Part shown: positions 12,168 through 46,377 of the stretch, in pieces | Position numbering within the stretch: the first letter of the stretch is position 1 | Layout of the letters: each line of letters opens with the position of its first letter | Assembly: GCA_017694915.1 (NCBI GenBank) | Contig: JADIMF010000098.1 | Span: forward strand, 1-51,888 | Source of the DNA: Candidatus Ornithospirochaeta stercoravium | GTDB taxonomy: Bacteria; Spirochaetota; Spirochaetia; Sphaerochaetales; Sphaerochaetaceae | Direction: 5' to 3' | Length of the DNA: 51,888 nt | Notes under the pieces: model-generated | What the model was told of the DNA's origin: nothing | What the model saw: only the letters and a program-made list of their open reading frames with translations | The model's database searches: none | Position numbers and translations under genes: made by a program

Positions 12168-12187
12168 ATTGGCAAAATTTTGCACTT
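12168..12187. promoter_or_regulatory. Copy 1 of the ATTGGYAAAATTTTGCAYTT motif (palindromic core GCAAAATTTTGC)
   Basis: attgGCAAAATTTTGCactt lies in the divergent SBP / histidine-kinase intergenic region. The 12-bp core is a perfect palindrome (12172-12183). Confidence 0.4.
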
Positions 12188-15874: not shown

Positions 15875-15880
15875 TATAAT

Positions 15881-19770: not shown

Positions 19771-19801
19771 TGTGCTATCATACGGGGAAAAGGGAGGAAT
19801 T

Positions 19802-29829: not shown

Positions 29830-31185
29830 ATGAATACAGAACTTAGATATGATGTTGTCGTAGCCGGTGGCGGCATTGCCGGAACGCTTGCAGCTGTAGC
29901 CGCTTCACGCCATGGTGCAAAGGTACTTATAGTCGAGGAGACAGGTTTCCTCGGAGGGTGTCTCACGACCTGCGGAACAGGTCCAATGATGACATTCCAT
30001 GCCGGTGACAAGCAGGTTATAAAAGGTCTTGGTGATGAGCTTATAGAGCATCTCAAGGCAAAGAAGCTTTCGCCGGGGCATACTGTCGACAGTACTGGTT
30101 ATACATATACCGTAACACCTTTTGATGCCGAGGGCATGAAGCGTGAGCTTGAGCTGATGGCCATCGAAAGCGGTGCTGAGCTTCTTTATCATGCGAAGAT
30201 AGTCTCTGCAGAGGTGAAGGATGGAAAAGCTGAATCGATTACCGTCACATCAATGGGAGAGATGATCAGGATAAAAGCCGATGTCTTCATTGATTCTACA
30301 GGAGACGCAATCCTTCTCAAGCTTGCAGGTGTTCCTGTTGAGTCCGGCAGGAAACCAGATGGCGTCAATCAGCCGATGACGATGAATTTCAAGCTCTCCG
30401 GTGTGGATATTCCTCTTATAAGGAAGACGATGGAAGAGCATGTCGAGCTTTTTCCGTTCCTTGCTCCTCATGAGAAGGGCCTTGAGAAGAAGGCCTTAAG
30501 ACTATCTTTCTCTGGTTTCCAGGACATCATGAAGAAGGGAATAGAATCAGGAGAGCTGGATATAGATCGTGATATCGTCCTCTGCTTCGAGACGAACAAT
30601 CTCAATGAGGTGATTGTGAACATGACCCGTATCCCGCGTCTGAATCCGCTCGATCCTTTTGATATCTCAAAGGCGGAAACAGAGGGAAGAAGACAGGTCT
30701 GGGAGATGTATGCATTCCTGAAAAAACATGTTCCAGGATTCAAGGATGCCCTCCTTCTCACGTCAGGGCCTAGAGTCGGTGTCAGAAGTTCTGGACGTAT
30801 GGTTGGCGTGTACTCGATTACAGCTGAGGATATACTCAATGAGACGATGTTCTCCGATGGAATCGCATGCTGCGGCTATCCTATAGATATTCACTCAGAT
30901 GGAGCGGAGACAAAGTCAACATTTCTCAGATGGGGAGGGTATTATTCGATTCCTTACAGGTGCTTGATAAACAATACAGTGCAGAATGTAATGGCTGCTG
31001 GCCGCGATATCTCCTGCACATTTGAGGCACATGCTTCGCTGAGGGTCAGTCCGTGCTGCACCGCAACAGGACAGGCTGCAGGTACTGCCGCCGCTCTTGC
31101 CGTGAAGGATTCCATTTCCCCCCTCTCTGTCAACACGGATGTCCTTCGTGCGATACTGAAGGAGGATGGTGCTGTAATTGACTAG
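29830..31185 (+). CDS. FAD-dependent oxidoreductase (FAD_oxidored / GidA-like fold), cytoplasmic
   Basis: 451 aa. N-terminal dinucleotide fold YDVVVAGGGIAGTLAAVAASRHGAKVLIVEETGFLGG. C-terminal motif AAGRDISCTFEAHASLRVSPCCTATGQAAGTAAA. No signal peptide. Embedded in the sugar ABC operon. Confidence 0.75.
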   Translation: MNTELRYDVVVAGGGIAGTLAAVAASRHGAKVLIVEETGFLGGCLTTCGTGPMMTFHAGDKQVIKGLGDELIEHLKAKKLSPGHTVDSTGYTYTVTPFDAEGMKRELELMAIESGAELLYHAKIVSAEVKDGKAESITVTSMGEMIRIKADVFIDSTGDAILLKLAGVPVESGRKPDGVNQPMTMNFKLSGVDIPLIRKTMEEHVELFPFLAPHEKGLEKKALRLSFSGFQDIMKKGIESGELDIDRDIVLCFETNNLNEVIVNMTRIPRLNPLDPFDISKAETEGRRQVWEMYAFLKKHVPGFKDALLLTSGPRVGVRSSGRMVGVYSITAEDILNETMFSDGIACCGYPIDIHSDGAETKSTFLRWGGYYSIPYRCLINNTVQNVMAAGRDISCTFEAHASLRVSPCCTATGQAAGTAAALAVKDSISPLSVNTDVLRAILKEDGAVID

Positions 31186-32131
31186 GAGAGTAACGCTTTC
31201 CGACGTGGCAGAGAGAGCTGGAGTATCGAGAGCGACAGCCTCTGCTGTGCTCAGCGGAAAGGAAGGAAAAAGCATAAGAGTCAGCGATGAGAAACGCAGG
31301 GAGATTCTGGAAGCGGCTGCGTCCCTTGGTTATGTGCCGAATACAGCTGCCCAGCATCTCAAGCGTGGTGATGACAACCACATCATCGCTGTATTCACTT
31401 ATGAGAATATATTTCCCACCGATCCTAAGAGCGAATATTATCTCTTCTTCGCCGGCATACAGCAGGAAGCCGAGAAGGAGGGATATGACATACTCATACT
31501 CAATAACTGGGCAAAGGATAAATCGAGATCATCACGCATAAGGCTTGCCTCCGGCGCTATAATGATTGGTGTCACAAGGGATGATGAGCATATCACATCA
31601 CTGGTAAAGCAGGATTTTCCTCTTGTCTTCGTAGGAAGAAGGCAGATTGGTGATAATCTTCCCGTTCATTGTGTAACATTTGACTATAAACCTGCTGTAG
31701 AGGCTATCGTTTCACATCTCGATGAAAAGCAGATAGTGTATGTCTCATCAAAGCATTCCCTTGCTGAACCTTCTGCTGACAAGAGCTTGTTCCTTCATGA
31801 TTACTGCAATAGAAACGGCATAGCTGTGGTTGATATCGTCATAGAAGATGAACCATGCGAAGAGGATATGAAGAGAGTTCTCTCGTCCAGAGCCGTGATA
31901 TTCGACAGATTATTCATCGCGGATTTATTCGCTCCGGTTTTACCTGACCGAGGCATCAAATGCGCCATCTTCGAGGATGACTGGACGGAAACACATAGCA
32001 CATGGACAAGGTGGGAGAACAGGAGACTTGAGCTTGGAGCCCTTGCCGCAAAGCATCTTATTGCGATGCTCGGTGGAAACGAGGAGCCAGGGGAATCCTC
32101 TGTTTCCATTCCGCTGATAATCCCGGAATGA
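31178..32131 (+). CDS. LacI-family transcriptional regulator
   Basis: 317 aa. The TTG start overlaps the upstream stop. The HTH is VTLSDVAERAGVSRATASAVLSG...VSDEKRREILEAAASLGYVPN, followed by a periplasmic-binding-protein-like effector domain. Confidence 0.88.
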   Translation: MTRRVTLSDVAERAGVSRATASAVLSGKEGKSIRVSDEKRREILEAAASLGYVPNTAAQHLKRGDDNHIIAVFTYENIFPTDPKSEYYLFFAGIQQEAEKEGYDILILNNWAKDKSRSSRIRLASGAIMIGVTRDDEHITSLVKQDFPLVFVGRRQIGDNLPVHCVTFDYKPAVEAIVSHLDEKQIVYVSSKHSLAEPSADKSLFLHDYCNRNGIAVVDIVIEDEPCEEDMKRVLSSRAVIFDRLFIADLFAPVLPDRGIKCAIFEDDWTETHSTWTRWENRRLELGALAAKHLIAMLGGNEEPGESSVSIPLIIPE

Positions 32132-32232
32132 TGCAGGCAATGAAGAACTTATAATTGTTTGCTGCTGTTTTTTCAGAATGAGATCTTCGATTTTTCCTTC
32201 CATCTTCATATCCGGCATGAGAGAATATAGAT

Positions 32233-32655
32233 ATGCAGATTGATAAAGAACTCCTTATTGAGAAAGCGCTTGAAGCGAGAAAGATGAGTTATTCACCTTA
32301 CTCGCATTTCCAGGTAGGAGCAGCGATTCTCACTGAATCGGGGAAAATATATACCGGAGCAAACATAGAGAACGCTTCCTATGGGGCGACCATATGTGCA
32401 GAGCGTACAGCTGCTGTGAAGGCTATTTTCGAAGGGGAGAGACTCTTTGCCGCAATTGCCATCGCGGGTTCTCCTGAAAGAACTGCGGAAGAGGATTTCG
32501 TCTATTCATATCCATGCGGTATCTGCAGGCAGTTTCTCAGGGAATTCGCACTTCCTGATATGGCTGTTTATATAAAGGGGCCAGAGAACGAGATAAAGGA
32601 AACAACACTCTCAGAGCTGCTGCCTGATTCATTCGGTCCAGAACATCTCGGATGA
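32233..32655 (+). CDS. cdd: Cytidine deaminase
   Basis: 140 aa. YSPYSHFQVGAAILTESGKIYTGANIENASYGATICAERTA (C-A-E zinc motif) and YPCGICRQFLREF (PCGxCRQ). Confidence 0.92.
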   Translation: MQIDKELLIEKALEARKMSYSPYSHFQVGAAILTESGKIYTGANIENASYGATICAERTAAVKAIFEGERLFAAIAIAGSPERTAEEDFVYSYPCGICRQFLREFALPDMAVYIKGPENEIKETTLSELLPDSFGPEHLG

Positions 32656-32662: not shown

Positions 32663-35659
32663 ATGGGAAAGAGAATCGGTCTGATGCTTGCGAATCTTTA
32701 TCAGGGCTCCAGTATTTCCATGTGGAAAGCCTTTGCGAAAGCTGCCAGCAGGCATAAGGATGGCTCGTTCTTCGTATTCCCTGGAGGCAAGCTGGGGGAG
32801 GACAATGGCGATGAATATATGCGTAATGATATATTCTCCCTTGTCACTCCTGAATCGATTGATGGTGTGATAATCTGGACATCGGCGCTCTCAGGTACAC
32901 GGGATGCATCAGAACTCCGCGACTATGCTCTGGAGAAGTCGAAGACAATGCCAGTTGTATCGATGGGAATGACCATCGATGGGTGTACCAGTGTGAATTT
33001 CGATGCTTATCAGGGGCTTCTCTCTGAAATCGAGCATATGATAACGGTTCATGATGACAGACGTATTGCATTCCTCAGAGGTCCAGAGACACATTCGAGC
33101 GCTGAAGCCAGATTCAGAGCTTATAGAGATGCGCTTGGAAAGCATGGGATAGAATTCGATCCTGAGCTTGTTTCCTCTCCCTTCCCATGGGCTGATGGAT
33201 ACAACGCTATGAAGGAGCTTATAGAAGGTCGTCATCTTGTTCCGGGAAAGGATTTCACGGCACTTGTCGCCGCATCAGATATGCTTCTGCTTTCGGCTTC
33301 GAATTATCTTTCAGAACATGGCTGGGAAATTCCCCGCGATCTTCACGCAGGTGGTTTCAATGACAGCGAGGATAATATCCTGATGCCGACGGAAATCACG
33401 ACAGTACGCATGCCGATAGATGAGCTTGCATCTGAATCATTCATGCTTATTTCCGAAATCTGCGAAGGGCGTAAGGCAGAGAGCCTTCTGCTTCCTTCAG
33501 CGCTGGTTATACGCAGGTCATGCGGTTGCAGCGGTATTTCCGGTAATGGTGATATCCATGCCTTCTGGAATCGCGTGAGGCCTCTTATTTCCTCTGATGA
33601 GGCACTGCATGCGGCGCGTGAGATTCTGGAATATATGACGGGTAAGGGAGATGATACCCGTCTTTATCGTTATGCCGAGATATTCATCGCCTCTGGCGGT
33701 GATGCAGGAGCTCTTTTCGATGCGGCTTCCGTCTATCCAGGAGCGATCATTCCTGAACGCAAGGACAGGATGCACCGCCGTATCGTGATGGAAGAGAGAA
33801 GGGCTGCCGCGAAGGAAAAGCAGAGAACGCAGACGCTGACATATGCACTGGATTCATTCAAGCGTGAACTCCTCGCGGCACGTTCAAAGGATTTCATCCC
33901 CGCGATAATGCTCTCGTCCTTCAGATATCTTGGTATCGACAAGGCATTCCTGATGCTTTATAGGGATTTCTCCTTCACCGAGTTTATCGGGGGGTTTGCC
34001 GATGATTCCCTGATTACCGGTCCTTCTGTATTTTCCCGTAAGAGCATTGTCCCCGAAGAGCTGGAAGAACACATTGAGAGAGGAACATTCATCGTGGAGC
34101 CTCTTTTCTATGGAAAGGAAGAGCTCGGATATATCGTAATAGGTACGGAGTGGGTTGAAGGGTATGTGCTCGAGGATATAAGAGTGTCTCTTTCCTCTGC
34201 ACTCAGGGGTATAAGTCTTCTTGAGGATGCGAATAAAGCAAAAGACAAGGCAGAGCGAGGTGAGCGTGATGCAGAGAATTTCTATGCAAGGCTTTCAGAG
34301 GGTGTAATGGTACCTCTTGGCGAGATACGCGCCTCCCTTCTCGACAGCACGAGGTTGTCGAGAGGCAGTCTTCTGAAATCTGTTCTCGGGGCAGAGCACC
34401 TTCTTGAGTTGTCGCTGATGGAGCGTGATGAGCTTTCAGTGAATAAGGTCCTGCAGTCGCTTTCCGATCTTCTGTCTGTTTTCGAGATAGAAGCCGGAGA
34501 CCTTCCATTGATAGAAGCTGATACTGAGAAGATCCGCGATACGCTGAGAATCCTCATGACAGGGAGACTCTCTATCTCATTCTCAGAGGATGGTGTTATT
34601 ATCTCCGGGCATCGGAATGCCTCAGACAAGCTTTCCCTTCAGTATGCTGAGCGCGTGATACTTATGCATTCTGGATTGATACACAGGGAAGATGGGAGCT
34701 GCAGTATCATGCTTCCATATCCTGTCCTCGGAGACGGGCAGGACGCAGGAAGCGGGGTGGTATTCTCAGGAGATGTTTCTTCTCTTCCTTTGGGCTTAGC
34801 TGCTGTCTCTGTGGACTGCCGGAAACTCGTTTCTGTAAATCCGCATGCGATAGTCATAACTCCTTCATCGTCTGAAGTCGCCTCAATGATTCTCTCATCA
34901 TCGCTCATTGATAAACGGCTCATTATCTTCGCTCCTCCCTCATCTTCTCTCAAGGCAACCCTTGAGCGTATAGCTGAGAATGATGAACTTACGATATCGG
35001 TGTTCGGTTCTTTGGCATCGCTTCCGGAGAAGCTTGAGGGGCTTGGCCGTATAGTGAACACCCTCCCTTCGGGCAGGATAGCAAAAGGAAAGACAATTGC
35101 GATTTTCACATCCTCTGATTATGAGGAGATAAGGGGATTCCGTTCCAGACAGCGCTATTCATCTGTTCCTGTCATCGTCGTGAGGGAGCGGTTCGACAGT
35201 AAGGATTTGGATGAGATTTCATCTTTGTCGAACACCATCATTGTGAATCCATCTGTGTTCGAAGCGGATGGTTTTCTTTCCCATCTCAAGACGATTGCGG
35301 CTTCTGGTACGTTGCCATCTCACACGGGAGTTCTCGTGAAGAAGGCTATAGTCTATCTCAATATGCACGCTGAGAAGCAGATATCACGATGGCAGGTGGC
35401 GGAGAGCGTGAACATAAGTGAGGACTACCTTGCACGTATCTTCCGCAGGGAGGTAGGACTATCACCATGGGAGTACCTTGGAATTTTCAGGATACAGCTT
35501 GCATCCGATATGCTTCTTAATACAGGAAAGACTCTTTCCGAGATAGCAGAGGACACTGGATTCATGGATCAGGCGTATTTCTCGCGTGTGTTCAGGAAGA
35601 TAAAAGGCTTTTCTCCTGGTGTTCTCCGACGTCATAAAAAGGTCGGAATAGTACAATGA
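32663..35659 (+). CDS. Large soluble one-component regulator: LacI-type sugar-binding (PBP) domain - central domain - degenerate HisKA/HATPase-like region - receiver-like region - AraC HTH
   Basis: 998 aa with no signal peptide or TM segment. The first ~290 aa or so (N-terminal) resemble a LacI effector domain (RIAFLRGPETHSSAEARFRAYRDALGKHG...LVAASDMLLLSASNYLSEHGWEIPRDL). A coiled coil is followed by FYARLSEGVMVPLGEI, which aligns to the HisKA H-box FxxxxSHELRTPLxxI. LSLQYAERVILMHSGLIHREDGSCSIMLPYP resembles the end of HATPase_c. The C-terminus is an AraC HTH (ISRWQVAESVNISEDYLARIFRREVGLSPWEY...FMDQAYFSRVFRKIKGFSP). Confidence 0.7.
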   Translation: MGKRIGLMLANLYQGSSISMWKAFAKAASRHKDGSFFVFPGGKLGEDNGDEYMRNDIFSLVTPESIDGVIIWTSALSGTRDASELRDYALEKSKTMPVVSMGMTIDGCTSVNFDAYQGLLSEIEHMITVHDDRRIAFLRGPETHSSAEARFRAYRDALGKHGIEFDPELVSSPFPWADGYNAMKELIEGRHLVPGKDFTALVAASDMLLLSASNYLSEHGWEIPRDLHAGGFNDSEDNILMPTEITTVRMPIDELASESFMLISEICEGRKAESLLLPSALVIRRSCGCSGISGNGDIHAFWNRVRPLISSDEALHAAREILEYMTGKGDDTRLYRYAEIFIASGGDAGALFDAASVYPGAIIPERKDRMHRRIVMEERRAAAKEKQRTQTLTYALDSFKRELLAARSKDFIPAIMLSSFRYLGIDKAFLMLYRDFSFTEFIGGFADDSLITGPSVFSRKSIVPEELEEHIERGTFIVEPLFYGKEELGYIVIGTEWVEGYVLEDIRVSLSSALRGISLLEDANKAKDKAERGERDAENFYARLSEGVMVPLGEIRASLLDSTRLSRGSLLKSVLGAEHLLELSLMERDELSVNKVLQSLSDLLSVFEIEAGDLPLIEADTEKIRDTLRILMTGRLSISFSEDGVIISGHRNASDKLSLQYAERVILMHSGLIHREDGSCSIMLPYPVLGDGQDAGSGVVFSGDVSSLPLGLAAVSVDCRKLVSVNPHAIVITPSSSEVASMILSSSLIDKRLIIFAPPSSSLKATLERIAENDELTISVFGSLASLPEKLEGLGRIVNTLPSGRIAKGKTIAIFTSSDYEEIRGFRSRQRYSSVPVIVVRERFDSKDLDEISSLSNTIIVNPSVFEADGFLSHLKTIAASGTLPSHTGVLVKKAIVYLNMHAEKQISRWQVAESVNISEDYLARIFRREVGLSPWEYLGIFRIQLASDMLLNTGKTLSEIAEDTGFMDQAYFSRVFRKIKGFSPGVLRRHKKVGIVQ

Positions 35660-35712: not shown

Positions 35713-36672
35713 ATGAACACCACGAAAACCAGGAAAATGGATAAGGATATTATGCAGAAACCTTCCAGAAGCAAGCTTCGCAGGGAGATTGCCAGGCATC
35801 GTTCTGTATATCTCTTAGCTCTGATACCGCTTATCTATTACATAATCTTCAAATATGTTCCGATCTGGAATGCGCAGATTGCATTCAGGGACTTCATGGC
35901 CGTTCGCGGTGTGACAGGCTCCGAGTGGATCGGCCTTGAGAATTTTCGCACATTCGTAAACAGCTTCTATTTCTGGTCCTTGATCAGGAATACGGTTATG
36001 TATTCAGTCGGCAAGCTTGTGATTTCCCTTCCTTTGTCGATAATCCTCGCAATCTGTATCTATGAGTGCACGAGGCCGGGATTGAGGAAGGTCGTCCAGA
36101 CGCTGGCATATCTTCCGCACTTCCTTTCTTGGGTTATCATGTATGGAATACTTCTTGCGCTTCTCGCACCTGGCGATGGTGTCGTCAATGATGTGATAAA
36201 GATGGCAGGAGGAAAATCCATAGACTTCCTTTCGAATGTTAAGACATTCCCGTGGGTGGTTCTCTTCTCCGATGCTTGGAAGGAGATGGGATGGTCAGCC
36301 ATCATCTTCATTGCCGCACTGATGGGTATAGATGTATCGCTTTTCGAAGCTGCGATGGTCGAGGGCGCAAACAGCTGGCAGCGCGTGAAATACATCACGC
36401 TTCCTGCGATCATGCCTGTTATCGTGACCGTTCTCATACTCAAGCTGGGAACAATCCTCGATGCTGGTTTCAATCAGATATTCATGCTCTATTCGCCACA
36501 GGTATATTCCGTTGCGGATATCATCGATACATGGGTTTACAGACAGGGTCTTCTTGAATTCGAGTTCGGTCTGGCAACTGCCGTCGGACTTTTCAAGGGT
36601 GTTTTCGGAATGATTCTCGTGCTCTTTGCAAACTGGCTTTCAAAGAGACTTACGGATAGTTCACTCTTCTGA
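35713..36672 (+). CDS. ABC polysaccharide/oligosaccharide transporter permease (LplB/YteP-like)
   Basis: 319 aa. EAA loop FEAAMVEGANSWQRVKYITLPAI. Confidence 0.88.
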   Translation: MNTTKTRKMDKDIMQKPSRSKLRREIARHRSVYLLALIPLIYYIIFKYVPIWNAQIAFRDFMAVRGVTGSEWIGLENFRTFVNSFYFWSLIRNTVMYSVGKLVISLPLSIILAICIYECTRPGLRKVVQTLAYLPHFLSWVIMYGILLALLAPGDGVVNDVIKMAGGKSIDFLSNVKTFPWVVLFSDAWKEMGWSAIIFIAALMGIDVSLFEAAMVEGANSWQRVKYITLPAIMPVIVTVLILKLGTILDAGFNQIFMLYSPQVYSVADIIDTWVYRQGLLEFEFGLATAVGLFKGVFGMILVLFANWLSKRLTDSSLF

Positions 36673-36682
36673 GGAGGCTGGA

Positions 36683-37606
36683 ATGGCAGAGAATACTTTA
36701 AAGAGAAAACATCTCAGACATGAAATGCAGAACAAGAAGGTGAAGCTGACGAAGGCTGATCATGTATTCAACGTTGTCGTGAATGCATTCATGATATTCA
36801 TCCTCATCGTCATCCTCATTCCGGTCTGGTCTACGATAACCCTTTCATTCCGTCCGAATGACTATCTCGGATCGAATCTTCAGGGTATGTTCCTTCCACC
36901 TTGGGAGTGGTCTACGGATGCCTATACGGCACTTCTTGGAAATGATGGGTTCCTGAACGCTTTCATAAGCAGCTTCAAGATCCTCGTTGGCGGTGTCGCG
37001 ACAGCTCTCATACTCACAATCCCGATGGCTTATGTTCTTTCGGTACATAGCCTTCCAGGAAGGAAGATAGTGAATCTGATTGTCATCATTCCGTATGTAT
37101 TCAATGTCGGAATGATCCCGACATACCTGCTTGTCAGGGACGTGGGATTGATGAATCATCTGGCTGCTGTCTTCGTGCCAGGTGCGATATCCACATACAA
37201 CTGCATAATAATGAGGCAGTTCTTCGTCGGAATACCGAATGAGCTGAAGGAATCGGCAAGAATCGATGGCTGTACGGAGCTTCAGGTTCTTTTCAGGATC
37301 ATCCTTCCGCTTTCAAAGGCTATAGTCATGACAATCGGCCTGTATTATGGCGTATCGTTCTGGAATGACTTCTTCAACGCTATGCTGTATCTCAATGACA
37401 ACCAGCCTCTGCCGATACTCCTGAGGAACATACTCCTTGCTTCCGGAATGAATGAGTATGTCGAGGTAAGTGCATTCGGCAATGCGCCAGTGAGCGCAAT
37501 AAAGGCCGCTTCTGTATTCATGAGTGCCATTCCTATGATCGTGGCTTACCCGTTCATACAGAAGTATTTCACAAAGGGAACGCTCCTCGGATCGGTGAAG
37601 GGCTGA
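36683..37606 (+). CDS. ABC transporter permease (LplC/YtcP-like)
   Basis: ORF 36626..37606, with the start moved to ATG 36683, which follows GAGGAGG. EAA loop KESARIDGCTELQVLFRIILPLS. Confidence 0.88.
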   Translation: MAENTLKRKHLRHEMQNKKVKLTKADHVFNVVVNAFMIFILIVILIPVWSTITLSFRPNDYLGSNLQGMFLPPWEWSTDAYTALLGNDGFLNAFISSFKILVGGVATALILTIPMAYVLSVHSLPGRKIVNLIVIIPYVFNVGMIPTYLLVRDVGLMNHLAAVFVPGAISTYNCIIMRQFFVGIPNELKESARIDGCTELQVLFRIILPLSKAIVMTIGLYYGVSFWNDFFNAMLYLNDNQPLPILLRNILLASGMNEYVEVSAFGNAPVSAIKAASVFMSAIPMIVAYPFIQKYFTKGTLLGSVKG

Positions 37607-37634
37607 TCCGGAGATGATAAAAAAGGAGGAGAAG

Positions 37635-39215
37635 ATGAGAAAATTCAAGAGTATTCTTCTGGTAGTGCTTGCAGTGCTTCTGGCTATGCCTATGTTCGCC
37701 GGCGGCAGCAAGGAAACAAAGCAGGCTGCAGGTACACCTGAAGATCCAATTACCATAGATCTCTGGTTCGGTGCAGCTATAACCGAAGCTGGAATGATCC
37801 CTGAAGACTGGGTTGGATATGATATCATCCGCAATGAGCTCGGTATCGATCTCAATCTGACGATGCTTCCATCCAACGAGTCCGACCAGGATGTGAGAAT
37901 CCAGGCAGCTGGTGCAGCAAATGAGCTCCCTGACATCTTCATGGTACGCCGTCCTGTCCTTTCAAACCTTGTAAAGCAGGGTCTTGTAGCACAGGTTGAT
38001 GACTGTTTTGCAAAGATGCCGAACCGCACAGCTCTTATCTATGATGAGAATGCTATTGCACATGCAACAATCGATGGCCATGTTTACGGATTCGCATCCC
38101 CTGGAGCAATCGCAAAGAACGAAGGTCTTCTTGTCAGGAAGGACTGGCTCGACAACCTCGGACTTGAAGTTCCTACGACACTTGACGAGTTCCTCGAAGT
38201 CGCAAGAGCATTCACATTCGATGACCCGGATGGAAATGGCAGGAATGACACATATGGTTATGGTGCATTCGTAGAGACAGACGCAACACTCAAGGGATAT
38301 CCTGGTTCAAGACTGTGGCCAATCATGGGTGCTTATGGCGTTGAAGGCCTCTGGAGCTTCGATAGCGAGACTGCTGGACTTTCGATCTACAAGCCTGAGT
38401 TCTATGATTTCATGGTAACTCTGAAGCAGATGTGCGATGAGGGAATCATCGATCCTAACTGGCTTTCATATAAGAAGGATGACTTCAGAGCAGCTTGGAA
38501 GCAGGGTAGATTCGGTATGATGTATGAGCAGAATGCAGCATATGCAGCTACTGCAAACTACGCACCGTTCGACGCTAACTTCCCAGATGGCGAATGGATT
38601 GTAATCGATGCTATCTCCGGACCGGAAGGAAAAGCATCAATCGGCGCATATGATATGAACTACCGCATTTACGCAGTAAGCCAGAAGGCAGCAGATGCCG
38701 GTAAGCTCGACAAGATCTGTGAGCTTCTTGAATGGCTCAGCTCAGACGAGGGTTACTACCTTGTTGGATGGGGTCAGGAAGGCGTCAACTACGTATTCGA
38801 CGAGAACGGAATCCCTGTTGCAGGCGATCTTGGTGACAATGCATTCACAGGTTCGAAGGGACAGGTCGTGACACAGCTTAGGAACATGGTCTTCTATAAT
38901 GGCGATGTCGAGCTTGCTTCACGCTATCCGACCTATGTTACAGAGGTTTCCGGAAAGACGATGTCCGCACTTACAACACTGCGTGAGATGCAGGAGAAGA
39001 AGTGGACAAGCGCTATCGGATCTGGAACAATGCCGACTCCGAACGCTGACGTACAGAGATACTACGATCAGAGTCTTGCTGAGTTCCTTACCGGAGCAAG
39101 AGCACTTACACCTGAAAACTGGCAGGCTTTCATTGATCAGTTCAACGCTATTGGCGGTGAAGCATGGAATCAGGAAGGTCTTGCGAAGATGCAGGCAGAC
39201 GGTCTTATCCGCTGA
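37635..39215 (+). CDS. Large extracellular solute-binding protein (LplA/YtcQ-like)
   Basis: ORF 37614..39215, with the start moved to ATG 37635, which follows AAAGGAGGAG. Signal peptide MRKFKSILLVVLAVLLAMPMFA/GGSKE. About 500 aa mature. Confidence 0.88.
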   Translation: MRKFKSILLVVLAVLLAMPMFAGGSKETKQAAGTPEDPITIDLWFGAAITEAGMIPEDWVGYDIIRNELGIDLNLTMLPSNESDQDVRIQAAGAANELPDIFMVRRPVLSNLVKQGLVAQVDDCFAKMPNRTALIYDENAIAHATIDGHVYGFASPGAIAKNEGLLVRKDWLDNLGLEVPTTLDEFLEVARAFTFDDPDGNGRNDTYGYGAFVETDATLKGYPGSRLWPIMGAYGVEGLWSFDSETAGLSIYKPEFYDFMVTLKQMCDEGIIDPNWLSYKKDDFRAAWKQGRFGMMYEQNAAYAATANYAPFDANFPDGEWIVIDAISGPEGKASIGAYDMNYRIYAVSQKAADAGKLDKICELLEWLSSDEGYYLVGWGQEGVNYVFDENGIPVAGDLGDNAFTGSKGQVVTQLRNMVFYNGDVELASRYPTYVTEVSGKTMSALTTLREMQEKKWTSAIGSGTMPTPNADVQRYYDQSLAEFLTGARALTPENWQAFIDQFNAIGGEAWNQEGLAKMQADGLIR

Positions 39216-39223
39216 TGACAGAT

Positions 39224-39243
39224 GGCCGCTCTCCGGGGCGGCC
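39224..39243 (+). terminator. GC hairpin after the SBP gene (attenuator/terminator candidate)
   Basis: GGCCGC-tctccggg-GCGGCC, followed by ttaattat. It lies between the SBP stop (39215) and the GH105 start (39267). Confidence 0.4.
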
Positions 39244-39266
39244 TTAATTATGAGGAAATAAAATAA

Positions 39267-40346
39267 ATGACTGCGTTATCAATCGAGATGGTCAGAAGCG
39301 TGATGAAACGCTACAGGCCTGGCATGATGAAATGGCACTACGAGCATGGTCTTGTTCAGTATGCCTCATTGGAAGCTTCTTCTTTATATAAGGATGATTC
39401 CGTCTTTCCGTGGGTCTATTCAATGTATGATCCGATGATCGGAGAGGATGGCAGCATCGTGACATACAGAAAAGGTGAGTATAACCTCGATCAGATCAAT
39501 GCAGGAAAAACTCTCTTCGCGCTTCTTGATGGAAGCGGGGAGGAGAGATTCGGAAAAGCTGCCGATATCCTTTTTGCCCAGCTTGAGACACAGCCGAGGT
39601 GCAAATGCGGCGTCTACTGGCATAAGGAGATATATCCATGGCAGATCTGGCTCGATGGCCTTTATATGGAAGGACCGTTCAAGGCTGAATATGCACTGCG
39701 TCATAACGACAGCGAGGCGCTTGATGATATCGTGAAGCAGTGCATAACCGTATATGAGATCATGAAAGATAAGGAGACGGGTCTTCTTTACCATTGCTAT
39801 GATGAATCGAGGGGAATGAAGTGGTCAGATGACAGCACTGGGCTTTCTCCTCATTTCTGGTCGAGATCCATAGGCTGGTATCTCATGGCTCTTGTCGATA
39901 TCCTCGACTATCTTCCAGAGGAGCATAAAGGAAGAGAGGATCTTAAGGATATCATTTCAAAACTTTCATCATCAGTGCTGCAGTTCCAGGATGATAGCGG
40001 AATGTGGTATCAGGTGACGGATGAAGGCAGTAGGGAAGGCAACTATCTGGAGACATCTTCGACATCGATGTTCGCTTATTCATTCCTTAAAGGCGCAAGG
40101 CTCGGGTATCTCGATTCATCATTCATTCCAGCAGGAGTGAAGGCAATTGAGGGAATGAAGGAGAGATATCTGAGAAAGGATGGCGATGAACTGCACCTCG
40201 GAGGTATCTGCTCGGTTGCGGGGCTTGGTGGAAATCCTTATCGTGATGGTTCCTTCAGGTATTATATCAGTGAGCCTGTGAGAGAGGATGATTTCAAAGG
40301 AGTCGGACCTTTCATTCTTGCATGTACTGAGATGGAGAGAAGCTGA
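39267..40346 (+). CDS. Glycoside hydrolase family 105 (unsaturated rhamnogalacturonyl hydrolase, YteR/YesR-like)
   Basis: 359 aa. MKWHYEHGL, NLDQINAGKTLFALL, WHKEIYPWQIWLDGLYMEGPF, FWSRSIGWYLMALVD, ETSSTSMFAY. Confidence 0.85.
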   Translation: MTALSIEMVRSVMKRYRPGMMKWHYEHGLVQYASLEASSLYKDDSVFPWVYSMYDPMIGEDGSIVTYRKGEYNLDQINAGKTLFALLDGSGEERFGKAADILFAQLETQPRCKCGVYWHKEIYPWQIWLDGLYMEGPFKAEYALRHNDSEALDDIVKQCITVYEIMKDKETGLLYHCYDESRGMKWSDDSTGLSPHFWSRSIGWYLMALVDILDYLPEEHKGREDLKDIISKLSSSVLQFQDDSGMWYQVTDEGSREGNYLETSSTSMFAYSFLKGARLGYLDSSFIPAGVKAIEGMKERYLRKDGDELHLGGICSVAGLGGNPYRDGSFRYYISEPVREDDFKGVGPFILACTEMERS

Positions 40347-41668
40347 TGGCAGTAATCAATCCTTCTGCTGCAGATGTATCCAGAAGCATCGTCCAGGCGC
40401 TTGAGAAAGATGGCGAGGCTGTGCTTAGAGGCGGTATATATCATTCATCGCCGTTTTCTGTCCCTTCTCATAGCCGTCTTGTGATCGAAAAGGATGCAAA
40501 GCTTGTATTCATCCCTGATTTCTCTCTCTATCCTCCGGTATTCACCAGATGGGAAGGAGTTCAGTGCTGGTGTATGCACCCATGCATCTTCATAAACGAA
40601 AGCGAGGATGTGAAGATCGGGGGTGAGGGGGTAATAGACGGCTCCGGAGAGAAGTGGTGGAAGACATGCCTTGAGAAGAAGGAGAAGAACAGGACTCCCG
40701 AGACGGTACTTGAACTTCAGTTCGCCGCACTTAATCCCGATTACAGAAACCAGCCAGGAGGCGGCGGTGGACGTGAGTTCCAGTTCTTGAGGCCACCTCT
40801 TCTTCAGATTAGAAAGAGCCGTGATGTCCTTATTGAGGGAGTCACTTTCAGAAATTCTCCGTTCTGGACGGTTCATCCGCTCTTTTCCGATAATGTCACG
40901 ATAAAGGACGTGAGCATTATCAATCCATATGACGCGCCGAATACCGATGGTATAGATATCGAGTCATCGAGCAATGTCTCTGTGCTCTCATCTTCAGTCG
41001 ATGTCGGTGATGATGGAATAGCGATAAAATCAGGATCAGGATTGGAAGGAATAAGGGATAATGTGCCCTCCAGGAATATCCTGATAAAAGACTGCATCGT
41101 GAAAGCCGCTCATGGCGGTGCCGTGATAGGCTCTGAGACCGCCGCGGAGATATCTGATGTTACAGTTGAATCATGCCTTTTCGATGGTACTGACAGGGGA
41201 ATCAGGATCAAGACAAGACGTGGCAGAGGCGGAAATATTCATGACCTTGCGTTCAGGAACATAAGGATGAAGGATAATCTATGTCCTTTTGTGATAAACA
41301 CATATTATAAATGCGGCACAGATGATGATTCGCTTTTCTCCCTTGATGAGAAGCCTGTTGATGATTCAACACCTGTCATTCATTCGATAACGATCGAGAA
41401 CTGCCATGCAGAAGGCTCCAGAGCTTCCTGCGGTATGGCTGTAGGGCTTCCTGAGAGTCCTCTGGGGAATGTGGTTATAAAGGATTCCTCGTTCTCAATG
41501 GCCTCGGATAATCTTGTTCCCGTTTCACAGAGCGATATGTACCGGGGACTTCCTGATCCCGTCTCGCGTGGCTTCAGACTGCGTAATATCGAGGTCCATA
41601 TCGAGAATACCGATATCGGATGCGAGGGAGTGAAAATCATAAAAGAGGAGAACGCGGAGATTCTCTGA
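40346..41668 (+). CDS. Glycoside hydrolase family 28 (polygalacturonase / rhamnogalacturonase-like), cytoplasmic
   Basis: 440 aa. GH28 catalytic motifs NTDGIDIESS, GDDGIAIKSG, AHGGAVIGSE and RGIRIKT. ATGA overlap with the GH105 gene. No signal peptide. Confidence 0.88.
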   Translation: MAVINPSAADVSRSIVQALEKDGEAVLRGGIYHSSPFSVPSHSRLVIEKDAKLVFIPDFSLYPPVFTRWEGVQCWCMHPCIFINESEDVKIGGEGVIDGSGEKWWKTCLEKKEKNRTPETVLELQFAALNPDYRNQPGGGGGREFQFLRPPLLQIRKSRDVLIEGVTFRNSPFWTVHPLFSDNVTIKDVSIINPYDAPNTDGIDIESSSNVSVLSSSVDVGDDGIAIKSGSGLEGIRDNVPSRNILIKDCIVKAAHGGAVIGSETAAEISDVTVESCLFDGTDRGIRIKTRRGRGGNIHDLAFRNIRMKDNLCPFVINTYYKCGTDDDSLFSLDEKPVDDSTPVIHSITIENCHAEGSRASCGMAVGLPESPLGNVVIKDSSFSMASDNLVPVSQSDMYRGLPDPVSRGFRLRNIEVHIENTDIGCEGVKIIKEENAEIL

Positions 41669-41669: not shown

Positions 41670-42362
41670 TCAGAACTGTGGCTGGAAGTAGCTTCTGTAC
41701 TCATCTGAGAAGAGCTTGCTTCCAAGCCTTCTGACGCCACCGTAGAGATGGCGGGTCATAAGCTCCTCAAGTCCGTCTGTGGACTTATTGTCTATCATCT
41801 CCATCATCTTCCTGTGGTCTTCCATTACATCCGGTACATTCTTTGCGCCCACGATATCGAGTCGGATGAAGCGGGAATAATCCGGATGCGGCTTTGTCAC
41901 AAGATTCCATATATACATCTTGTTCGCGCTCTGGAACCAGAGCCTATGCATCTCGAGGTCCTTCTTCAGGAAGAGATTTATATCAAAGGTCTCCAGATCA
42001 TCCTTACCTTTAGCGATTTCCTCCATCTGTTCGAATGCATATCTGACACTTTCTCTTTCAGTAGGAGAGGCATTCCTTATGAAATCGCGGAATATCATGG
42101 ATTCGACAGCGACTCTTAGATAGATGATTTCGGAAGCTGTTTCCATCGATATCGGCATGACGAATGTGCCTTTGCCCATGATTATCTTCACAAAGCCATT
42201 ATCCTGAAGACGTTGCAGGACGCTTCTTATAGGAGTGCGTGAGACATCGAATCTTGCCGCAAGTGAATTCTCTCCCAGTACATCGTTCGGCTTTATCTTC
42301 AGCTCGACGATTTCATCTTCAAGAATATTGTAAATCTGGTCCACGCTATACTGGGTTTTCAT
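41670..42362 (-). CDS. GntR-family transcriptional regulator (FadR/FCD subfamily)
   Basis: 230 aa. The wHTH is LGENSLAARFDVSRTPIRSVLQRLQDNGFVKI, followed by an all-helical FCD-like C-terminal domain. SD AGGAGAG. Divergent from the TRAP operon. Confidence 0.85.
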   Translation of the reverse strand: MKTQYSVDQIYNILEDEIVELKIKPNDVLGENSLAARFDVSRTPIRSVLQRLQDNGFVKIIMGKGTFVMPISMETASEIIYLRVAVESMIFRDFIRNASPTERESVRYAFEQMEEIAKGKDDLETFDINLFLKKDLEMHRLWFQSANKMYIWNLVTKPHPDYSRFIRLDIVGAKNVPDVMEDHRKMMEMIDNKSTDGLEELMTRHLYGGVRRLGSKLFSDEYRSYFQPQF

Positions 42363-42375
42363 TCACTCTCCTACT

Positions 42376-42383
42376 TGTATACA
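42376..42383. promoter_or_regulatory. TGTATACA palindrome 1 (GntR/FadR-type operator candidate), in the 5' leader of the GntR gene
   Basis: acTTGTATACAGGTta lies directly upstream of the GntR SD. The same TGTATACAGGT string recurs at 42528. Confidence 0.5.
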
Positions 42384-42527
42384 GGTTATTCAATGTCTTT
42401 GATTATAAGCTCCCGCATCATCACAATGCAAGTGAATTCCTTGCTATATAAGGAATTTTCGCAAAATGTAAATTTTGTGAAGATTTTTGTTGCACGCTGT
42501 ATGAAACAGTGTTAGCGTATAGTAAGA

Positions 42528-42535
42528 TGTATACA
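42528..42535. promoter_or_regulatory. TGTATACA palindrome 2 (operator candidate)
   Basis: agaTGTATACAGGTtt lies in the GntR / TRAP divergent region. A degenerate copy TGTATATA is at 42560-42567. Confidence 0.5.
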
Positions 42536-42594
42536 GGTTTCACTGAAGTGAATTCAAATTGTATATAACTTTATTAAGTATAGTTAGATACATC

Positions 42595-42602
42595 TGTATA
42601 CA
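42595..42602. promoter_or_regulatory. TGTATACA palindrome 3 (operator candidate), 45 nt upstream of the TRAP SBP start
   Basis: catcTGTATACAtttg. Confidence 0.5.
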
Positions 42603-42646
42603 TTTGTTGTAGTCCATTAGATGGTGGATGAAAGGAGGTTTCTCAG

Positions 42647-43690
42647 ATGAAGAAAGCGTTATCGGTTCTGCTCGTACTTCTGCTTGTATCATTCGCAGCA
42701 TTCGCAGGCGGCAGCAAGGAAACCGCTGCAGCAGCAAGTGCTGACGATCCATATGCAGGTCTTGGCAATTACACAATGATGATCGGCCATTCACAGCCTG
42801 CAGATAACCCAAGATCCATTTCCCTCGAGAAGTTTGTTGCTGATGTCGAGGAAAAGACAAATGGACATGTGACTGTTCAGGTATTCGGCAATGGCCAGCT
42901 TGGAACAGAGAAGGAAATGCTTGAGCAGGTTGTTATCGGAACACTGCAGGGTATGAGAGGCGGTCAGTTCGACTTCACTCCGCGTCTTCTTATGTTCACA
43001 CTTCCGTTCCTTGCACAGACAAGAGAGGAAGTAACAGCGCTTCTTCATAGTGATCTTGCTGCAAAGGTATGTGCAGAAGCTGAGGCTGAAACAGGTACTG
43101 TCATCATCAATCTCTGCGATGCAGGTGGTTTCAGACAGTTCTCGAACAGCAGACATCCGATTACAAAGCCTTCTGATCTCCAGGGCCTCAAGATGAGAAC
43201 AGCTGGAATGGAGACAATCGACAGAACATTCCGCGCTCTCGGCGCTACAACAACCCCAGTTCCGTATTCAGATCTTTATATGGCTCTCAGAACAGGTGTT
43301 GCTGATGGTCAAGAGAACCCATGGACCAACGTATCTAGCATGAAGTTCTATGAAGTCCAGAATTACTTCACAGAGGTTAACTACCAGTTCCATCCGGATC
43401 CGTTCTATGTGAATGCTTCGTGGTGGAACAGCCTTCCTGAGGAATTCCAGACAATCATCAGAGAATGCGCAACCGAGATGGGCACATACAACGATCAGCT
43501 CGTTGATGAGCTTCAGTCTTCAGCAAGACAGACTGTTGTTGACGCTGGCGGAGAGATTTACGTTCCGACGGCTGAGGAGCTTCAGGCATTCAAGGATGCT
43601 GTACAGGTTGTTTATCAGCAGTGTATCGATTCTGGTATTCTCACAGCTGAAGAGCTTGCTGAGCTTCAGGAAATCGTAGCAAATAACTGA
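42647..43690 (+). CDS. TRAP transporter substrate-binding protein (DctP family)
   Basis: 347 aa. SD AAAGGAGG. Signal peptide MKKALSVLLVLLLVSFAAFA/GGSKE. DctP-type motifs (GHSQPADNPRS..., GNGQLGTEKEMLEQVVIGTLQG, RTGVADGQENP). Confidence 0.9.
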   Translation: MKKALSVLLVLLLVSFAAFAGGSKETAAAASADDPYAGLGNYTMMIGHSQPADNPRSISLEKFVADVEEKTNGHVTVQVFGNGQLGTEKEMLEQVVIGTLQGMRGGQFDFTPRLLMFTLPFLAQTREEVTALLHSDLAAKVCAEAEAETGTVIINLCDAGGFRQFSNSRHPITKPSDLQGLKMRTAGMETIDRTFRALGATTTPVPYSDLYMALRTGVADGQENPWTNVSSMKFYEVQNYFTEVNYQFHPDPFYVNASWWNSLPEEFQTIIRECATEMGTYNDQLVDELQSSARQTVVDAGGEIYVPTAEELQAFKDAVQVVYQQCIDSGILTAEELAELQEIVANN

Positions 43691-43707
43691 TTGCAGTATC
43701 TGCAGGG

Positions 43708-43737
43708 TACTCCTGGAGGTTCCAGGAGTATTTTTCT
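43708..43737 (+). terminator. Perfect 10-bp hairpin + U-run between the TRAP SBP and small-permease genes (intra-operon attenuator)
   Basis: TACTCCTGGA-ggt-TCCAGGAGTA, followed by TTTTTCT. Confidence 0.75.
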
Positions 43738-43750
43738 CAAGGAGTAATCA

Positions 43751-44290
43751 ATGAATGACACATTGAAGAATGTGGGCAAGAAGCTATATGACATCTATTT
43801 TGCGATTGGTGCGATTGCAATGGGCCTTCTGGCGTTGCTTGTGGCTTTTACCGTCATCGCGAGATACTTCTTTGCTCATAGCTGGAAGGAGCTGGCTGAA
43901 TTCATAACAACGCTGTTTGCGTTTACTACATTCTGGGGAATGGGACTCTGTCTGCTCAGGAATGACCATGTCATAATCGATATTGTATATGACAGGATTA
44001 AGCCATCTATTAAACGTTGGGTAGCCGTACTTGACTACGCTATCGTATTCATCGTCGTTGCAGTATTTACATATTTCGGCTTCAAATATGTTGCAGCAGC
44101 TGGCAAGCAGATCAGCCAGGGTATGGGAATACCTATGAAGTATATGTACGGCATAATGCCGATTTCCGGAGTAATCTGCGGAATCTGTACAATCATAAAG
44201 ATAGTCGGGTTCATAACTGCTGACATCTCTGAATTCGCACCTGTCTATTACGACAAGAATAGAGACGAGAATGGGGGTGAGTCCAAATGA
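43751..44290 (+). CDS. TRAP transporter small permease (DctQ family)
   Basis: 179 aa, 4 TM. SD AAGGAG. ATGA overlap with the large permease gene. Confidence 0.88.
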   Translation: MNDTLKNVGKKLYDIYFAIGAIAMGLLALLVAFTVIARYFFAHSWKELAEFITTLFAFTTFWGMGLCLLRNDHVIIDIVYDRIKPSIKRWVAVLDYAIVFIVVAVFTYFGFKYVAAAGKQISQGMGIPMKYMYGIMPISGVICGICTIIKIVGFITADISEFAPVYYDKNRDENGGESK

Positions 44291-45576: not shown

Positions 45577-45588
45577 AGGAGGAATGGA

Positions 45589-46377
45589 ATGACACTTAAG
45601 GAGAAAATGAAGAAGGGACCTGTTTTCGGAATGGCTTGCTTCACAGGTTCGACATGCGTTATCGAGAATATCGCGATGTCTGGTCTCGATTTCATCTACC
45701 TCGACCTCGAGCATACTGACTGGATGCTCGGCGAGGATTTCGAGAAGCAGATCATGGCTGCAAAGCTTCATGACATCGGAGTTCTTGTAAGAATGGCAGA
45801 TGATGATGAGGTCGCTATCAGAAAGGTGCTCGAGTGGGGTGCTGATGGCGTCGTTATTCCTCATTGTAAGACTGCTGAGATGGCAAGACGTTCTGTAGAA
45901 GGAGCTAAGTTCTATCCTCTCGGAAGAAGAGGCGGTGAGACAAATGTCCGTGCTGCAGGTTTCGGCTATCAGGATTTCGACTGGAACAAGTACATCCAGA
46001 GCCAGAATGAGAATACTCTTGTAATCCCGATGGATGAAGATTTCGAGTTCACCGATAACATCGATGATATTCTCGCTGTTCCTGGTATCGATGCCGTTAA
46101 CTTCGGACCTATAGATTACGCAGTATCGAAAGGCCTCAAGATCGGCTACACGATGGGTACTGAAGTCAAGGAAGCTTTCAAGGTTCTCGTCAAAAAGGCT
46201 AAGGAGAAGGGCATAGGTGTCCTCGGTCCTGTTGTTCCTCCTACAAAAGAGAACATAAAGGAAGCTATTGCTGACGGATATACGATGATCATACTCGGCA
46301 ACGATATGTGGCACTTCCAGAAAGCTCTTAAGGAGCTTGTGAAAGATGAGGTTGATGAGGTCCGCAAGGATTTCTGA
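45589..46377 (+). CDS. HpcH/HpaI-family aldolase (2-keto-3-deoxy-sugar-acid aldolase type)
   Basis: 262 aa. SD AAAGGAGG. FTGSTCVIENIAMSGLDFIYLDLEHTD, VLVRMADDDEVAIRKVLEWGADGVVIPH, GIDAVNFGPIDYA. Confidence 0.8.
   Translation: MTLKEKMKKGPVFGMACFTGSTCVIENIAMSGLDFIYLDLEHTDWMLGEDFEKQIMAAKLHDIGVLVRMADDDEVAIRKVLEWGADGVVIPHCKTAEMARRSVEGAKFYPLGRRGGETNVRAAGFGYQDFDWNKYIQSQNENTLVIPMDEDFEFTDNIDDILAVPGIDAVNFGPIDYAVSKGLKIGYTMGTEVKEAFKVLVKKAKEKGIGVLGPVVPPTKENIKEAIADGYTMIILGNDMWHFQKALKELVKDEVDEVRKDF

Follow-up and report, generated by a model that had tools for sequence, protein, structure and literature searches.

Contig JADIMF010000098.1 of Candidatus Ornithospirochaeta stercoravium (assembly GCA_017694915.1; Spirochaetota, Sphaerochaetaceae), analyzed here over its 51,888 nucleotides (the window), codes for a regulator of 998 amino acids (aa) at positions 32663 to 35659, as taken from the list of open reading frames (ORFs) and their translation. 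Its ATG lies 8 nucleotides after the stop codon of cdd (cytidine deaminase), and it is followed by genes for an ABC transporter and two glycoside hydrolases (GH), the presumed target operon. All features of the regulator and the operon described below are on the forward strand. The initial annotation had taken this protein for a fossil hybrid two-component system with a Glu in place of the phosphorylated His. We identified, in order, a LacI-type sugar-binding domain with the periplasmic-binding-protein (PBP) fold, a helical and GAF-like module, a DHp-like region, a remnant of the CA (HATPase_c) domain, two pseudo-receivers, and an AraC double helix-turn-helix (HTH). As judged from sequence and predicted structure, the protein appears to have kept the folds of the kinase and the receiver while all the phosphotransfer chemistry is gone.

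Domain searches recognized only the two ends of the protein. Pfam gave just Peripla_BP_1/3 (residues 4 to 288) and HTH_18/HTH_AraC (residues 913 to 990), with zero matches between residues 288 and 913 even at E≤10, which leaves the kinase and receiver regions below detection. NCBIfam gave LacI and AraC matches, both below threshold, and none in the middle (residues 290 to 890). The motif match made by eye in the initial annotation cannot be validated from this protein alone, and the identity of the middle region is better seen in the family.

A homologue search in 5.8 billion proteins retrieved 148 clusters (90% clustering), nearly all full length at 1000 to 1200 aa and mostly from Spirochaetales, including metagenome-assembled genomes (MAGs) of Sphaerochaeta, Treponema, and Ornithospirochaeta. 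An exhaustive phmmer search with residues 289 to 700 against 1.84 billion representatives yielded no more than 180 proteins at E≤1e-3. Almost all of them have 1000 to 1200 aa or are fragments, and they match at an equivalent place along the protein. Since more than 100 clusters keep the full length, we can rule out that the gene is a fusion or an artefact of assembly. One homologue, P0104 (1138 aa), has 52% identity to the first 38% of the regulator and is fused to RecQ-type helicase domains, probably because of a chimeric contig or a gene-calling artefact. The database labels of the family are generic (“substrate-binding” or “helix-turn-helix domain-containing protein”).

In the family alignment of 117 sequences, the regulator lines up over its whole length with proteins in which the complete set of domains is present. 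Its nearest relatives show only PBP and AraC by Pfam, some with an added weak HisKA, and the most distant ones are Pfam positive for PBP, HisKA, HATPase_c, Response_reg, and AraC, as in P0109 (HisKA at residues 596 to 659, HATPase_c at 707 to 815, the receiver at 964 to 1045, and the HTH at 1116 to 1194). These intact members (P0109, P0115 to P0120, P0189, P0194, P0203, P0206, P0222, P0233, P0234, and P0238, with P0118 counted among the intermediates too) score 24 to 61 bits for HisKA, 85 to 102 for HATPase_c, and 30 to 79 for Response_reg. They keep the His, the N, G1, F, and G2 boxes, and the DD, D, T/S, and K residues of the receiver, none of which is found in the regulator. The His is carried by 6 of the 117 aligned sequences, or by 14 members when further representatives, mostly metagenome proteins, are added. 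Between both extremes lie intermediates such as P0227, with Arg for His, a HATPase_c of 68 bits, and no detectable receiver; P0209, with a HATPase_c of 26 bits; and P0220, P0186, and P0118, in which only HisKA is seen (21 to 26 bits).

The decay is graded across the family, and the sequences indicate that it happened more than once. In neighbor-joining (NJ) trees, the intact members formed one clan in 0 of 100 bootstraps, which rejects a single loss event, and one intact group clustered with the decayed P0220 and P0227 in 100 of 100. Assuming that a lost motif set is never recovered in full, phosphotransfer would have been lost at least two to three times, the exact count being uncertain in these distance-based, unrooted trees. 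Descent from a fused two-component regulator with loss of the phosphotransfer chemistry is the part of our interpretation that we hold with high confidence. The fossil reading of the initial annotation holds in that intact orthologues exist with the same domain order and operon. Its comparison with the membrane-bound systems of Bacteroidetes does not, since the ancestor appears to belong to a soluble spirochaetal family that already had a cytoplasmic LacI-type sensor.

The predicted structure of the middle region agrees with this origin. The AlphaFold2 model of residues 289 to 890 (mean predicted local distance difference test score [pLDDT], 91.9) consists of a helical bundle, an alpha/beta module, a helix of 61 residues that contains Glu546, DHp helix 2, an alpha/beta sandwich (residues 596 to 685), and two Rossmann-like units. 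Foldseek found 47 matches to this model in the PDB at E≤1e-3, nearly all of them histidine kinases, and gave a probability of 1.00 to more than 40 histidine-kinase structures. Among them were the full-length bacteriophytochrome kinase 9eut (1.6e-8 over 475 columns, with the sensor-like module included), HK853 (3.8e-7), WalK, YycG, SrrB, AdeS, CusS, GacS, EnvZ, and CpxA, as well as the noncanonical DivL (4q20; 5.7e-6) and RetS (6dk7; 2e-4). We also compared profiles of two sets of sequences aligned separately, the regulator with its 57 closest Pfam-negative relatives and the intact members only. With hhalign, the decayed and intact DHp and CA regions matched at 98.4% (E 6.7e-15), the Glu of the former being paired with the His of the latter, and residues 290 to 520 matched at 99% (E 6.6e-18). 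Taken together, profiles and model clearly point to homology of the 600 residues between sensor and AraC domain to a histidine kinase and receiver, in line with the DHp and CA resemblance noted initially.

The signaling coiled coil runs into DHp helix 1 as the continuous 61-residue helix of the model (residues 500 to 560; positions 34160 to 34342), which aligns to the HisKA of intact members (for instance, residues 605 to 670 of P0116). Within it, FYARLSEGVMVPLGEI, the end of the coiled coil singled out in the initial annotation, occupies residues 540 to 555 (positions 34280 to 34327) exactly as annotated, and Glu546, with its codon at 34298 to 34300, falls in the phospho-His column both in the family alignment and in the profile comparison. 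The H-box remnant proper (residues 540 to 553; positions 34280 to 34321) reads FYARLSEGVMVPLG, versus LLANVSHELRTPLG in the intact members. The frame of the box, F-x-A-N-[VI]-S-x-x-L-R-x-P-L, is retained around the lost His, with the Pro at H+5 present in 115 of 117 members. DHp helix 2 is predicted at residues 567 to 587 (positions 34361 to 34423), and Foldseek matches it within the DHp-CA units of HK853, WalK, and DivL.

The CA remnant (residues 596 to 687; positions 34448 to 34723) aligns to the HATPase_c of the intact members (86 to 102 bits) and forms an alpha/beta sandwich in the model. It has about 68 aligned residues, where intact members have about 110, and it has lost the ATP lid, the stretch that links G1 to G2. 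The Asn of the N box, the DxGxG of G1 (DTGxG in intact members), the F box, and the GxGxG of G2 are gapped or replaced in the alignment of 117 sequences, so the eroded ATP-binding core described initially holds, and no intact His or ATP-binding box was overlooked. What remains is the end of the domain, already suspected to be HATPase_c-like. Here LSLQYAERVILMHSGLIHREDGSCSIMLPYP aligns to the G2 helix and the last strands of intact HATPase_c (GLGLAISRRLAALHGGRIDA...RFTLRLPLP), and the helix and strands after G2 read GLGLAISRRLAALHGG...RFTLRLPLP in intact members versus LSLQYAERVILMHSGL...SCSIMLPYP in the regulator. The regulator therefore has the DHp hairpin and CA sandwich of a HisKA kinase by fold and homology, with Glu in place of the phospho-His and a CA that has neither the N, G1, F, and G2 boxes nor the lid. 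From its sequence, we can predict that it carries out no autophosphorylation or phosphotransfer.

Glu at this position is not fixed in the family. Across the 117 members, the His column contains E (56), N (12), G (11), S (11), D (10), H (6), A (4), K (3), and R (2). Glu predominates in the clade of the regulator, and P0004, 59% identical to it, has Gly. The receiver Asp is gone as well, and nothing would be left to read a residue that imitates phospho-His. We conclude that Glu546 is probably a tolerated, perhaps mildly preferred, polar replacement and not a required phosphomimetic, the function that had initially been considered for it.

The region of about 200 aa after the CA remnant had been annotated as one receiver-like region. 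Its receiver-like character is confirmed, but it contains two units and not one. The first (residues ~699 to 773; positions 34757 to 34981) is shortened and recognizable by the alternation of strands and helices in the model (pLDDT of ~90). It is also present between CA and receiver in the intact members, where it is Pfam negative too. The second (residues 776 to 881; positions 34988 to 35305) aligns to the Pfam Response_reg of the intact members, and its stretch KTIAIFTSSD...SVPVIVV corresponds to the beta3-alpha3-beta4 part of this Pfam-positive domain. With hhalign, the decayed receiver profile matched that of 13 intact members at 98.6% (E 9.4e-16). A profile built from 35 decayed members only, searched against the PDB, retrieved 40 chains at E≤10, of which 36 were receiver domains (best match, 3kht at 0.0019; the receiver and DNA-binding domain of a Bacteroides system, 12aw, at E 0.15).

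None of the five active-site residues of this second receiver is left: the DD pair is replaced by G782 and S783, the phospho-accepting D by T816 (positions 35108 to 35110), the T by R841, and the K by P863. In the model of residues 688 to 998 (pLDDT of 92.4), these aligned positions coincide exactly with the C-terminal ends of the predicted strands, namely beta1 (776 to 781, then G782 and S783), beta3 (811 to 815, then T816), beta4 (837 to 840, then R841), and beta5 (858 to 861, then N862 and P863). Helix alpha2 is apparently missing. Profile comparison, PDB profile search, and strand positions thus point to a CheY-like (beta-alpha)5 fold in a region that has lost the whole DD, D, T/S, and K quintet, and residues 776 to 881 can be considered, on their sequence, an aspartate-less pseudo-receiver as defined in PMC12632262.

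The sensor and the output are the best-conserved parts of the family, with mean pairwise identities of 45% for the PBP domain and 60% for the AraC domain. The coiled coil and DHp come next (37%), followed by the CA and pseudo-receiver (24 to 27%), so that the decayed modules are still under constraint. The helical module has 21%, and conservation is lowest in the two pseudo-receivers (19 to 24%). The sensor (residues 4 to 288; positions 32672 to 33526; Peripla_BP_3 2.2e-18, Peripla_BP_1 9e-12) has the type I PBP effector core of the LacI/GalR class and matches PDB LacI-family cores at best at 2.4e-21 with the regulator and 1.5e-39 with the family profile. Thirteen of its residues are invariant throughout intact and decayed members. 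The HTH of that class is absent, as annotated initially: there was no PF00356 match in the regulator, and no such domain can precede the PBP, because the cdd stop lies 8 nucleotides upstream, so that the ORF cannot be extended, and the first PBP strand begins at residue 4. At the junction with the helical module, an S-C-G-C motif (residues 286 to 289; positions 33518 to 33529) is invariant in all of the 95 aligned members, intact and decayed alike. We know of no such motif in LacI-family cores; in the probable dimer, its CxC pair might bind a metal, be redox active, or contribute to the interface.

The central region of about 230 aa, present as initially described, can now be resolved into two parts. 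A helical bundle that ends in a helix of 42 residues (residues 298 to 405; positions 33554 to 33877) is Pfam negative and modeled with a pLDDT of >94. It is followed by a GAF/PAS-like alpha/beta module (residues 409 to 495; positions 33887 to 34147), modeled as one helix and five strands, whose Foldseek matches also include the GAF domains of PDE2A and the PAS-GAF-PHY region of Cph1. These matches suggest a GAF/PHY-like module, the fold assignment being approximate. At the other end, the double HTH of about 100 residues typical of AraC/XylS regulators (residues 886 to 995; positions 35318 to 35647; HTH_18 2.7e-20, HTH_AraC 6.4e-14) is found where the initial annotation had placed it. HTH_18 scores 72.9 bits (cutoff, 33.6), HTH_AraC matches in two stretches, and Foldseek retrieves AraT (6swi; 4.9e-7, with a root mean square deviation [RMSD] of 1.0), YesN, MarA, and SoxS (RMSD of 1 to 2 Å for AraT, MarA, and SoxS).

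The regulator is predicted to be soluble, as had been proposed from the lack of a transmembrane segment, because its highest mean Kyte-Doolittle hydropathy in a 19-residue window is 1.56, at residue 699, in a predicted Rossmann-like strand or loop. The same scan found no hydrophobic segment in the regulator or in the intact members, ruling out a membrane protein. Upstream, positions 31178 to 32655 contain a gene for a 317-aa protein with a LacI HTH and a binding-domain match below threshold, and then cdd. The position of cdd 5' of the regulator is shared by few related loci only (L003 and L017).

The presumed target operon (positions 35713 to 41668) consists, by Pfam, of two CUT1-type ABC permease genes (35713 to 36672 and 36626 to 37606; both BPD_transp_1), a solute-binding protein of 533 aa (37614 to 39215; SBP_bac_8), a GH88/GH105-family hydrolase (39267 to 40346; PF07470, Glyco_hydro_88 4.9e-94), and a GH28 enzyme related to polygalacturonases (40346 to 41668; Glyco_hydro_28 8.8e-40). 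The ORF of the second permease, as listed, has a TTG start 47 nucleotides inside the first permease gene, and its true start is probably further downstream. The gene content is the one initially annotated, but the name “LplABC-type” could not be confirmed, as no NCBIfam match of the downstream genes reached a curated cutoff and the binding protein had no match at all. We compared 80 related loci, taken from species-representative genomes. In more than 50 of them, the regulator gene is followed by two permease genes, the binding-protein gene, and GH88/105, down to 31% identity of the regulator, and most of the remaining loci have the GH88/105 gene directly after the regulator. This conserved synteny argues for control of the downstream operon by the regulator. 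Two loci of the intact clade from Spirochaetes MAGs (L081 and L082) have the two permeases, the binding protein, GH88/105, and GH28, and a third (L083) has two permeases before the contig ends. Because the intact-clade loci carry the same downstream operon, intact and decayed proteins appear to be orthologous regulators of one regulon.

Around the regulator, a scan for promoters and terminators gave a single promoter-like site, which is on the wrong strand; shuffled sequence gave more. Right after the GH28 gene, positions 41670 to 46377 contain a minus-strand GntR/FCD regulator and then a TRAP transporter (DctP, DctQ, and DctM) with an HpcH/HpaI-type aldolase, apparently a module for sugar-acid catabolism that could supply the rest of the pectin pathway. 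Elsewhere in the window, a canonical YesM/YesN-type pair (12411 to 15666, plus strand; His_kinase PF06580 with HATPase_c, then receiver with AraC) adjoins an ABC transporter, a heparinase II/III-like lyase, and a GH88 gene (5894 to 12175, minus strand). From this pair, the same genome would therefore use working phosphotransfer for another uronate-glycan locus. Positions 15839 to 17341 and 19772 to 22665 code for a Schlafen/AlbA_2 protein with HATPase_c_4, a second heparinase II/III-like enzyme, and a DUF3089 protein.

The closest counterparts of the regulator are its intact soluble spirochaetal orthologues (P0116 from locus L081, P0109, P0194, and P0238), which are annotated only as “substrate-binding domain-containing protein”. 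They share with it the domain order, length class, middle module, SCGC motif, and operon, but keep all the catalytic residues, of which the regulator has none. The hybrid two-component systems (HTCS) of Bacteroides have the same order of sensor, HisKA, HATPase_c, receiver, and AraC in one polypeptide, an order that the regulator has in terms of descent only, and they also adjoin glycan-utilization genes, whose control by the regulator is presumed. One of them, the fructose sensor BT1754, has a sugar sensor with the PBP fold. However, HTCS are inner-membrane proteins with a periplasmic sensor, whereas the regulator has no signal peptide or membrane helices (hydropathy maximum of 1.56) and its LacI-type sensor would be cytoplasmic. 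The regulator also has an additional helical/GAF-like module and an additional receiver-like unit, belongs to the phylum Spirochaetota, adjoins an ABC importer rather than SusC/D, and lacks any phosphotransfer residue. With the donor His and the acceptor Asp both absent, the His-to-Asp transfer that controls DNA binding in HTCS has no counterpart in it.

As long as a Bacteroides HTCS is not phosphorylated, its receiver contacts the DNA-binding domain around the (S/C)HIP site of the alpha3-beta4 loop and in this way suppresses DNA binding (PMC11253607). The alpha3-beta4 loop is also the most conserved piece of the pseudo-receiver in our family (x-x-[VTI]-P, with the Pro in 115 of 117 members; SSVP in the regulator and RHVP in intact spirochaetal members). 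We take this likeness to the HTCS site as a lead and not a test, that Pro being common in receivers generally. DivL, which has Tyr for His, and RetS have the DHp-CA fold without canonical autophosphorylation, and such pseudo-histidine kinases signal by conformation or protein contacts (PMC4211667). They differ from the regulator in acting on partner two-component proteins and in having a full-size CA, whereas the CA remnant here is lid-less and the protein has its own sensor and DNA-binding output. The kinase ShkA has a central pseudo-receiver ahead of the true receiver (PMC7010744), an arrangement like the CA, receiver-like unit, and receiver of the intact spirochaetal members. Unlike in ShkA or in the described aspartate-less receivers (PMC12632262), the pseudo-receiver of the regulator is covalently joined to a decayed kinase, both partners having decayed together.

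The E. coli regulator XylR probably provides the best model, by analogy, for how the protein works. It has an N-terminal PBP core without a LacI HTH and a C-terminal AraC double HTH, its structures (PDB 4fe4/4fe7) match both ends of the regulator and of the family profile, and it is a cytoplasmic one-component, sugar-responsive activator of a transporter and catabolic operon, to which the regulator can be likened by sequence. The domains of XylR are joined directly, whereas about 600 residues of kinase and receiver scaffold lie between those of the regulator. Because the defining features were examined and found absent, we place the regulator, on its sequence, functionally outside the histidine kinases, the response regulators, and the Bacteroides HTCS. 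Literature searches turned up no soluble HTCS with a LacI-type sensor, no decayed or degenerate HTCS, and no pectin regulators of spirochaetes.

Based on these likenesses, the regulator is likely a phosphorylation-independent, ligand-gated, one-component activator of the downstream pectin-oligosaccharide operon. Its ancestor would have been a cytoplasmic hybrid regulator with a LacI-type sensor, helical/GAF-like module, HisKA, HATPase_c, receiver-like unit, receiver, and AraC domain, and the present protein would be a soluble and probably dimeric one-component transcription factor. A cytoplasmic sugar would be bound by the N-terminal Venus-flytrap domain. The presence of GH88/105 and GH28 partners makes an imported (unsaturated) oligosaccharide from pectin or rhamnogalacturonan, or something made from it, the most plausible inducer. 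The shape change would pass through the helical/GAF-like module, run along the long coiled coil, and reach the four-helix bundle of the DHp-like region. It would thereby reposition the CA-like and pseudo-receiver domains, which would free or align the two AraC domains and switch on the neighboring operon for the ABC transporter, GH88/105, and GH28. The former relay would pass a shape change instead of a phosphoryl group. The analysis itself shows the homology, the folds, the loss of catalytic residues, the orthology with intact regulators, and the kept synteny, and from these comparisons we infer the ligand, the dimerization, the allosteric route, and activation as the direction of regulation. 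The combination of descent and loss of chemistry with an allosteric mechanism is in our opinion the best overall explanation and a probable one, and the allosteric activator mechanism taken by itself is slightly favored. That a full His-Asp relay was converted repeatedly and independently into a phosphorylation-independent allosteric regulator, with its regulon unchanged and its folds serving as a mechanical conduit, is possible but on balance doubtful.

Several observations weigh against this interpretation. Pairwise BLASTP of residues 520 to 890 with the intact P0116 was not significant (best E, 0.45), and the homology of the middle region rests on intermediates, profiles, and predicted structure. 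The resemblance between the first and second receiver-like units is weak (hhalign 56 to 82%, E 1e-4 to 1e-5, ~40 columns). Foldseek with residues 688 to 998 had only AraC domains and no receiver in its top 50, which makes the confirmation of the receiver fold indirect. Only 53 bp separate the regulator gene from the first permease gene, the scan found no promoter-like site in this interval, and the regulated promoter may be located 5' of the regulator or of cdd. The 600-residue scaffold, in turn, could be a dimerizing spacer rather than a signal conduit. A resemblance to kinase and receiver that is merely coincidental, the middle being an unrelated domain, would fit the BLASTP result and the blank Pfam and NCBIfam searches of residues 290 to 890. 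We regard it as effectively refuted and next to impossible in view of the profile-profile E values of 1e-15 to 1e-18, the Foldseek probability of 1.00 to more than 40 histidine-kinase structures, the graded intermediates (P0227, P0209, and P0220/P0186/P0118), and the intact members with the same synteny.

If the decayed core were a structural dimerization spacer, the sugar would act directly on the geometry of the dimer, as in XylR, with remnants that carry no signal and a Glu546 without a role. The free variation of the His-position residue (E, N, G, S, D, A, K, and R) agrees with this, as do the low conservation of the two pseudo-receivers and XylR itself, in which PBP and AraC domains are enough for sugar-responsive activation (PDB 4fe4/4fe7). 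Yet about 600 folded residues are kept at full length in ~180 clusters (50% identity), no shortened PBP-AraC derivatives appeared among the matches, the coiled coil and DHp are better conserved than the helical module and keep the H-box frame, and the model confidence is very high throughout, so that we consider a spacer unlikely. Glu546 as a required phosphomimetic, which would lock the DHp bundle rotated as if it were phosphorylated, has in its favor that Glu is the commonest residue (56 of 117; E, D, or N in 78 of 111 non-His members) and that in DesK the H188E substitution (PDB 3GIF) fixes the DHp helices rotated outward, as a proxy of the phosphotransfer state (PMC12033271, PMC7005713). 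DesK H188E is nevertheless inactive in vivo (PMC12033271), many full-length members, including P0004, have Gly, Ser, Ala, Lys, or Arg, and the receiver Asp that would read a phospho-His is gone, which makes this role improbable. More improbable still is a pseudokinase that modulates a partner kinase or response regulator in the manner of DivL or RetS, with a secondary AraC output. Both proteins are among the Foldseek matches, and the genome has canonical two-component systems such as the YesM/YesN-type pair at 12411 to 15666. However, no kinase or response regulator gene is linked in the 80 related loci, where the transporter and GH operon is conserved instead. The regulator also has its own sensor and DNA-binding output, and a receiver without all five active-site residues would accept no phosphoryl group.

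Bacterial pseudokinases and pseudo-receivers are known singly, and how they switch is mostly unclear (PMC12632262). Here, both partners of a fused His-Asp relay seem to have decayed together with sensor, output, and target operon unchanged, and the added interest lies in the coexistence of intact, intermediate, and fully decayed orthologues with an unchanged regulon. They provide a natural comparison set for the conformational versus chemical share of two-component signaling, which also bears on whether the gating of the DNA-binding domain by the receiver in Bacteroides HTCS can survive without phosphorylation. In practical terms, ~180 clusters (50% identity) can be annotated as a likely regulator of pectin/rhamnogalacturonan oligosaccharide uptake in gut and environmental spirochaetes. 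Two-component systems are usually thought to have evolved from one-component regulators. A repeated conversion from relay to allosteric regulator, if true, would be the reverse of this path, and nature would hold matched versions, with and without chemistry, of one signaling wire.

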